Virus record (IMG/VR): IMGVR_UViG_3300010201_000017
Length of the DNA stretch: 64,000 nt
Strand: one strand, 5' to 3'
DNA from: a virus
Taxonomy: Duplodnaviria; Heunggongvirae; Uroviricota; Caudoviricetes
Under the pieces are notes generated by a model. That model ran no database searches. It was not told where the DNA came from and saw only the letters and a list, made by a program, of their open reading frames with translations. A program made the position numbers and the translations under genes. The stretch's first letter is position 1. Each line of letters begins with the position of its first letter. Shown here piece by piece: positions 35,415 through 35,476 of this stretch.

Positions 35415-35476
35415 AAGGATTCGCGTCACACGATGAAGGATTCGTAGCCAAGCCTGTTGACAGCGACAAGGATTCG
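35415..35476 (+). promoter_or_regulatory. Three direct copies of AAGGATTCG (35415, 35436, 35468) flanking a TTGACA (35457-35462), 70-130 bp upstream of the GHKL ATPase start
   Basis: Read directly. The same 9-mer recurs across the window (see findings). Confidence 0.4.

Follow-up and report, generated by a model that had tools for sequence, protein, structure and literature searches.

Between positions 35,415 and 35,476 of the window (the whole 64,000-nucleotide stretch of viral DNA that was analyzed), three copies of the 9-bp word AAGGATTCG stand close together at the 5' side of a gene for a large GHKL ATPase. The question raised by this locus is whether the copies are part of the ATPase coding sequence or of the DNA that controls it, and, in the latter case, what might read them. 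An earlier note on this DNA described a triple direct repeat with offsets of 21 and 32 bp, and the copies read from the window sequence begin on the plus strand at 35415, 35436 and 35468, which agrees with that description. The main features are:

35415 to 35423, plus strand: copy 1 of AAGGATTCG, at about −78 to −70 from the predicted transcription start; its 8-mer is invariant in 5/5 orthologous loci
35436 to 35444, plus strand: copy 2 of AAGGATTCG, at about −57 to −49 from the predicted transcription start
35468 to 35476, plus strand: copy 3 of AAGGATTCG, at about −25 to −17, with its GATTC pentamer at about −22 to −18, within the −35/−10 spacer
35543 to 38080, plus strand: GHKL (Bergerat-fold) ATPase gene, 845 amino acids, with its start placed at ATG 35543 by the N-termini of homologs

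An abundant intergenic word, repeated in non-coding DNA

The note had called the motif window-wide, and counts bear this out. There are 17 copies of AAGGATTCG in the window, compared to 1.09 ± 1.02 expected from 100 dinucleotide-preserving shuffles of the window, none of which reached 17. The 8-mer AAGGATTC occurs 27 times (approximately 1.5 expected), and when k-mers were ranked without bias by their enrichment in intergenic relative to coding DNA, the top words were AAGGATTC and its sub-words. Intergenic positions make up only about 12% of the window, yet 18 of the 27 AAGGATTC copies are located there (binomial P = 4 x 10−11). Five pairs of neighboring AAGGATTC copies are no more than 50 bp apart, against 1.36 expected (P = 0.007).

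The annotation of the ATPase gene nevertheless places the repeats inside it. An open reading frame of 913 amino acids (35339 to 38080) is present and reads through the repeats, as the earlier note had also observed, and the JGI gene call P0001 (891 amino acids) starts at 35405, 46 codons ahead of ATG 35543, and translates them too. If translation began at 35339 or 35405, the copies would simply be coding sequence for K-D-S / E-G-F peptide repeats in the N-terminal part of the ATPase, and many pairs of AAGGATTCG elsewhere in metagenomes are indeed coding tandem repeats whose spacings are enriched for multiples of three. At this locus we find such a reading hardly credible. All seven homologs compared (38–64% identity in the aligned N-terminal part) begin at the residue aligned to the M of MAKASN, which corresponds to ATG 35543, and none of the seven has an N-terminal extension upstream of it. 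In loci L006 and L007, the upstream reading, followed in frame, is interrupted by stop codons that lie within the repeat region or immediately after it. Of the two offsets, 21 bp is a multiple of three and 32 bp is not, which puts copy 3 in another frame (K-D-S) than copies 1 and 2 (E-G-F); a conserved ribosome-binding site and ATG lie downstream of all three. Given where the homologs begin and the upstream stops in L006 and L007, the start of P0001 appears to be mis-called and is probably too early. The earlier view of the region as regulatory, not coding, is thus supported by the homolog starts, by the in-frame stops, and by the pattern of upstream conservation described below; it corrects the start of a conserved, uncharacterized GHKL-ATPase gene and defines the promoter of that gene.

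The label of GHKL ATPase, which had been given to the gene from its sequence, is upheld by invariant motifs and by fold matches. Residues of the N-box (ExxxNxxDA), the G1 motif (DxGxG) and the glycine-rich G2 motif are invariant in 53 homologs (E86, N90, D93, A94, D169, G171, G173 and G205–G208). An AlphaFold2 model of the protein has a pLDDT of 82, and its top Foldseek matches are GRP94/Hsp90, Topo VI-B, MORC2 and SMCHD1 (E-values of 1e-9 to 1e-5, probability 1.0, with TM-scores of only 0.2–0.37). No curated profile of the HATPase_c type in Pfam, NCBIfam or PADLOC matches the protein, no PDB entry matches it by sequence, and none of the homologs listed has a precomputed Pfam domain. The family, whose members are about 800–860 amino acids long, has hundreds of homologs in Alphaproteobacteria, Chloroflexota, Bacteroidota, a Thorarchaeota genome bin and haloarchaeal plasmids. 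The nearest homologs are 53–59% identical over the full length of the protein, and the homolog loci share a syntenic gene order: S11 peptidase, an unknown gene, ART-PolyVal, a small ORF, the ATPase gene, and pyrG. A scan of genome contigs found distant GHKL homologs only; viral contigs and a phage collection yielded no GHKL relatives, and all matches to rpoD in the viral contigs were unrelated.

Copy 3 lies in the core of a conserved, predicted promoter

The upstream region could be aligned among five syntenic orthologous loci (the window, L006, L007, L151 and L152). The earlier note had proposed asking whether the three copies are conserved in such loci: copies 1 and 3 are invariant as 8-mers, and most of copy 2 is kept. 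The upstream region has otherwise diverged almost everywhere, and nearly the only invariant blocks are copy 1, the AAG..TTC of copy 2, TTGAC, copy 3 with a following nCTG, an A/T-rich −10 region, the ribosome-binding site and the ATG. At the orthologous positions copy 2 reads AAGAATTC, AAGGATTC, AAGATTTC or AAGCCTTC, and only AAG..TTC is invariant among these; at copy 3, AAGGATTC and nCTG are the same in all five orthologs. Conservation site by site within diverged flanks is the pattern of protein-binding sites. The elements around the copies are:

34971 to 35174, minus strand: divergent small ORF of 67 amino acids, signal-peptide-like, with the ribosome-binding site AAGGAATC; called as a gene in L005 and L006
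35448 to 35455, plus strand: decayed remnant of an inverted copy, ccaagcct, with 3/8 matches to GAATCCTT
35457 to 35462, plus strand: −35 hexamer TTGACA, of which TTGAC is invariant in the five orthologs
35478 to 35487, plus strand: extended −10 TG (35478–35479) and A/T-rich −10 region, with conserved CTG, T and A columns
35527 to 35532, plus strand: ribosome-binding site GGAGAG, 10 nt upstream of the ATG, in a conserved purine-rich block

The small ORF and the ATPase gene share an intergenic region of 368 bp. In L006, L007 and L151 an intact inverted copy, GAATCCTT, abuts the −35 hexamer at the place where the window has the decayed remnant.

We model the core as a sigma-70-type promoter, consisting of TTGACA, 17–18 nt, and TGn followed by an A/T-rich hexamer, from which transcription is predicted to start near 35493. 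The distance from this TTGACA to ATG 35543, given in the earlier note as about 80 bp, is 86 bp. Its partner could be CTAAAA (35481–35486, with an 18-nt spacer) or TAAAAT (35482–35487, with a 19-nt spacer). A strict scan for the sigma-70 consensus, which is a low-power test, called no promoter between 35100 and 35650, because the CTAAAA hexamer lacks A2 and T6; the locus has a −35 element that matches TTGACA, and what it does not have is a hexamer with A2 and T6 located 16–18 nt downstream, since TAAAAT needs 19 nt. The composite TTGACn-N4-5-AAGGATTC-NN-TG-N-(A/T-rich) occurs seven times in the loci of this lineage. The earlier note had placed the copies in the leader of the gene. They are upstream regulatory DNA, as this implied, but on the promoter model they precede the transcription start and would belong to the promoter, not to a transcribed leader. 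In L152, only 6 nt separate a further AAGGATTC (1007–1014) from the GHKL start codon downstream, so that this copy would also serve as the Shine-Dalgarno sequence, and the window copies at 14985 and 5362 sit before the starts of other genes in the same manner.

The copies had also been described as evenly phased. They do lie on one face of the helix in the window, but this spacing is not kept in the orthologs: the distance from copy 1 to copy 3 is 53, 57, 56, 56 and 44 bp in the five loci, made up of spacings of 21, 25, 25, 25 and 18 bp between copies 1 and 2, and of 32, 32, 31, 31 and 26 bp between copies 2 and 3. Because the spacing drifts in this way, strict helical phasing of the array is probably not essential. 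A metagenome-wide scan for pairs of AAGGATTCG, tried as a test of phasing, returned mostly unrelated matches (GC content 27–72%), among which only L076 is a possible relative; since the preference of their spacings for multiples of three marks them as coding tandem repeats, the scan was useless for this purpose.

The motif at other promoters and across the lineage

Three other promoters in the window, all on the plus strand, hold the motif or a variant of it in the −35/−10 spacer:

12933 to 12961, plus strand: rpoD promoter, TTGCAC-GAATCCTT-N9-TAGAAC, a block conserved in L131 and L133
43809 to 43837, plus strand: promoter of the yqiJ-flotillin operon, TTGACG-gaagt-GGAATTCG-tTGc-AATAAG, with AAGGATTCG at the same spacer position in L006 and L152
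51205 to 51233, plus strand: tRNA-Ile promoter, TTGAAA-N17 (ending in cGAATCGAATCCTT)-TAACGT, which ends 7 nt before the tRNA 5' end at 51241

In L131 and L133 the rpoD promoters read TTGCGC/TTGCAT-GAATCCTT-N9-10-TACAAC/G, and the motif block is essentially the sole conserved block upstream of genes whose RpoD products are only 63–65% identical to that of the window. The yqiJ-flotillin promoters of L006 and L152 have the form TTGACG-N4-AAGGATTCG-yTGc followed by an A/T-rich hexamer (AATAAC in L006, TCTTAA in L152). At tRNA-Ile, the geometry from promoter to start is fixed by the mature 5' end of the tRNA, 7 nt after TAACGT, which fits the 6–8 nt usual between a sigma-70 −10 element and its start. 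Further copies are found upstream of ClpS/PilZ, an EF-hand gene beside pyrG, a CHAP-domain gene, a type IVb pilin gene, and others. By our own test of strictly defined promoter spacers, which has low power, only 2 of 52 copies fall within one.

The motif occurs in both orientations, and its orientation differs between promoters. We found no conserved flanks beyond AAGGATTC-R among aligned copies, and this lack of information in the flanks indicates that AAGGATTC-R is an autonomous unit. Approximately one copy in seven (6 of 43) is followed by ATCC at positions +10 to +13, and a perfect 15-bp palindrome made of two overlapping motif units, AAGGATTGAATCCTT, occurs in the window at 5626–5640, where it abuts the GTG start of an Rv2179c-like 3'-5' exoribonuclease gene, and in L006 at about 1120–1134, in the PilZ-ClpS intergenic region. 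These palindromes may be the highest-affinity sites of a putative factor; together with the copies followed by ATCC, they hint at dimer binding. A second triple array lies at 60848–60905 of the window, where AAGGATTCG is followed 21 bp on by AAGGATTCA and 29 bp further by AAGGATCC; it is situated between the terminator of a pilin gene and the start of the gene at 60481–60831, to which it is antisense, and its last copy is 17 nt from the ATG. Another copy of AAGGATTCG, at 48439, falls within tnpB, 68 nt from its 5' end and on the other strand. A search of the literature for the motif string matched only primers and unrelated sites.

Could the copies act in RNA rather than in DNA? Their AAGGA core matches the complement of the anti-Shine-Dalgarno sequence, so that in an mRNA leader they might be CsrA/RsmA-like GGA sites or decoy Shine-Dalgarno sequences that control translation. 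Copies lie 4–7 nt before start codons at 14985, at 5362 and at 1007 in L152, and six of nine copies in unambiguous intergenic regions are sense-oriented. Against this, all three copies at the ATPase gene are upstream of, or within, the conserved −35/−10 region, and GGA sites of the CsrA/RsmA kind would be expected on the sense strand of the transcribed leader. Many copies are antisense to the sole downstream gene (60848, 60869, and the spacer copies of rpoD and tRNA-Ile), the tRNA-Ile copy is upstream of the tRNA 5' end, and neither a conserved leader structure nor an Rfam match was found at this locus. We regard an RNA-level role as very unlikely.

The motif is present at 0.2–0.5 copies per kb in all seven loci of the lineage. 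Neither the 21.6 kb around pyrG in Tardiphaga nor another 21.6 kb, from a related metagenome-assembled genome, contains it; an alphaproteobacterial genome bin with a distant GHKL homolog has one copy in 13 kb. Its density in the window, about one copy per 2.4 kb, is near that of the DNA-uptake sequences DUS and USS, which raises the idea of a non-regulatory genome-wide signal (an uptake sequence, a miniature repeat family, or replication iterons) that has accumulated in intergenic DNA; there is a type IVb pilin gene in the window, and the 21-bp spacing recalls iterons. We give this idea little credence. The motif keeps its exact position in core promoters among relatives with 53–65% protein identity, only 8–9 bp are conserved and no longer repeat unit is seen, and copies are spread over at least 15 loci with no single origin-like site and no GC-skew switch. 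Plasmid iterons are tandem units of 17–22 bp at one origin or rep promoter, and the copies here have no such arrangement. In sum, the array at 35415–35476 is real, non-coding and conserved, and the word of which it is made is the dominant promoter-associated one in the lineage.

As for the replicon itself, sequences with close relatives of its pyrG gene are 823,350 bp (the sequence of L006 itself, with its GHKL gene), 820,224 bp and 819,838 bp long. The pyrG of the window is 81% identical to that of Bradyrhizobiaceae and is not syntenic with it, and its RpoD is full-length and strongly diverged, with only 52–57% identity to RpoD of Hyphomicrobiales. About half of the ORFs have no Pfam match. 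The window also encodes thyA-folA, a TilS-like gene, PTH2, an RF-1-domain protein and two tRNAs (the only Rfam hits), along with the mobile-element markers PcfJ, DUF2786/DUF7168, ART-PolyVal, AbiEii, TnpB and SNF2. A replicon of this size (about 0.82 Mb) could be a giant extrachromosomal or mobile element, a megaphage, or a reduced cell.

Several features of the window were noted in passing. The tRNA-Ile (51241–51316) has the anticodon AAU in a normal 7-nt loop, an A.C mismatch closing the stem, and an encoded CCA; the usual anticodon of bacterial tRNA-Ile is GAU. The TilS-like gene (27000–27707) is located just upstream of a tRNA(CAU) at 27790. The combination of tRNA-Ile(AAU), TilS-like gene and tRNA(CAU) suggests an investment in decoding AUU and AUA codons. 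In the divergent intergenic region upstream of rpoD, CGTTTCACGTGAAACC (12840–12855) holds a perfect 14-bp palindromic core of the parS consensus, although parS-like matches with up to 3 mismatches arise in 23 of 100 shuffles; no GC-skew switch was found in the window. The thymidylate synthase ORF (56333–57460) overlaps an ORF on the minus strand (55225–56742), and its listed TTG start is probably too far upstream, because Pfam homology begins only at residue 113. The ORF at 47284–48507 is a TnpB of the IS605 type (OrfB with a Cas12f-like TNB domain), and the one at 54062–55186 is an AbiEii nucleotidyltransferase toxin gene.

A putative global regulator, and comparison with known systems

The best explanation, to which we assign a probability of roughly 0.55, is that copies of AAGGATTCG are putative binding sites of a sequence-specific protein that is a global regulator of the replicon lineage. 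Its recognition unit would be 8–9 bp, AAGGATTC(R), and would serve many promoters, singly or in arrays and in both orientations. In the promoter of the GHKL-ATPase gene, where copy 3 lies in the spacer of TTGACA-18 nt-TGnCTAAAA, the bound protein would be placed directly against RNA polymerase, and the copies at about −53 and −74, with the inverted copy that abuts the −35 hexamer in relatives, could raise local occupancy; up to five sites might span −80 to −17 at this promoter. With its consensus −35 and extended −10, the core promoter looks strong, and for this reason we incline to the view that the protein represses or gates the ATPase gene. Pfam scans of the approximately 65 ORFs in the window found no obvious DNA-binding transcription factor beside the strong sites, and rpoD and a tRNA gene are odd targets for a classical repressor, which counts against the regulator reading, as do the negative strict sigma-70 scan, the low count of copies in strictly defined spacers (2 of 52) and the drifting phase of the array. 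Whatever its reader, the dominant cis-regulatory word of an uncultured replicon lineage offers a handle for predicting its promoters, its regulon and, eventually, its master regulator.

The sequence GATTC within the motif suggests another candidate reader. In Caulobacter, the GcrA consensus is TGATTCG / YGAKTCK (PMC4647560), and GcrA boxes are centered at −20±1 or −30±2 in the spacer or at +5 to +30 (PMC9976885); in the csM promoter (PcsM), the box is a GAATC at −22 to −18, and the protein binds as a monomer tethered to sigma-70 (PMC9976885, PMC4647560). The GATTC of the motif might accordingly be N6-adenine methylated by a CcrM-like enzyme and the spacer site read by a GcrA-like sigma-70 cofactor, of the host or of the replicon, that activates transcription, making AAGGATTCG a lineage-specific extended GcrA box. 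Several features fit. All three array copies contain GATTC, and their core GGATTCG matches TGATTCG at 6 of 7 positions. On the predicted promoters, GATTC is located at −22 to −18 (GHKL and yqiJ) or at approximately −29 to −25 (the rpoD promoters). The motif is used in either orientation, GAATC/GATTC is about threefold denser in intergenic than in coding DNA, and the rpoD and pyrG genes of the replicon are closest to those of Hyphomicrobiales.

Other features do not fit, and we consider a GcrA-like reader possible though doubtful. The invariant 5' AAG, and the G in place of Y before GA, are foreign to the known box, and 13 of 43 copies end in A rather than K, and AGATTCA is the lowest-ranked context in Caulobacter (PMC4647560). 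GAGTC/GACTC is not enriched in intergenic DNA (0.44 compared to 0.65 per kb). Nor is GANTC the conserved determinant, because variants without it, which keep AAGGATT or ATTCG, stand at orthologous positions: AAGGATTG (window 39942 and L006), AAGAATTC (copy 2 of L006) and GGAATTCG (the yqiJ spacer of the window). Variants of this kind suggest that the bases of the unit are read directly, over its whole length. GcrA is not reported to reach as far upstream as the copies at about −53 and −74 (PMC9976885), and a search by regular expression only, which is a weak test, found no GcrA-like ORF in approximately 170 kb of lineage DNA. A bolder version of the same idea seems unlikely to us: that a Hyphomicrobiales-associated mobile-element or megaphage-like replicon of about 0.82 Mb, which carries nucleotide-metabolism genes, tRNAs and a strongly diverged sigma-70 of its own, controls the majority of its promoters (the rpoD promoter among them) through a 9-bp GANTC-core spacer element read by a GcrA-like methylation-sensitive sigma-70 cofactor, and so couples its expression to the replication or methylation state of the host. 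If the resemblance to GcrA/CcrM is real, the motif would be a case, beyond the Caulobacter model, of an extended epigenetic code in the promoters of a whole replicon.

Returning to the regulator reading, the element resembles several known systems in part. It is like a GcrA box in being a short asymmetric element with a GATTCG core, situated in the predicted spacer near −20 or −28 in either orientation, enriched in intergenic DNA, on a replicon related to alphaproteobacteria; it is unlike one in its longer unit with AAG, its G for the 5' Y, its common 3' A, its orthologs without GANTC, and its arrays reaching to about −80. It resembles DnaA boxes as an asymmetric 9-mer that is clustered, in both orientations, in promoter regions and elsewhere, but the sequences are unrelated except for ATCC (TTATCCACA compared to CGAATCCTT) and it is not associated with an origin; we rejected a DnaA-box reading because ATCC alone is shared. 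We also rejected, by inspection, readings of the motif as a sigma-54 or ECF-sigma element or as an alternative −35, because the spacing to a downstream −10/−12 is inconsistent.

Sites of OmpR/PhoB and of SARP regulators replace the −35 element and have a fixed orientation and an 11-bp periodicity. The array shares with them direct repeats on one face of the DNA, the proximal repeat lying a few base pairs upstream of the −10; it differs from them in keeping a consensus −35 and in having neither a fixed orientation, which changes from promoter to promoter, nor a fixed phasing, since the spacing is not the same in all orthologs. The operators of MerR-type regulators are palindromes in over-long promoter spacers. 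Here too the site is centered in the spacer, and the spacer would be 19 nt if TAAAAT were the −10; with the conserved TG as an extended −10, however, it has a normal length of 17–18 nt. Lastly, the KorA and KorB operators of IncP-1 plasmids are 12–13 bp palindromes bound by known dimers. Unlike these, the motif described here is mostly an asymmetric half-site; like them, it is one short operator that recurs at many promoters of the same replicon, in many cases on top of core promoter elements, an arrangement that would allow coordinated replicon-wide control.
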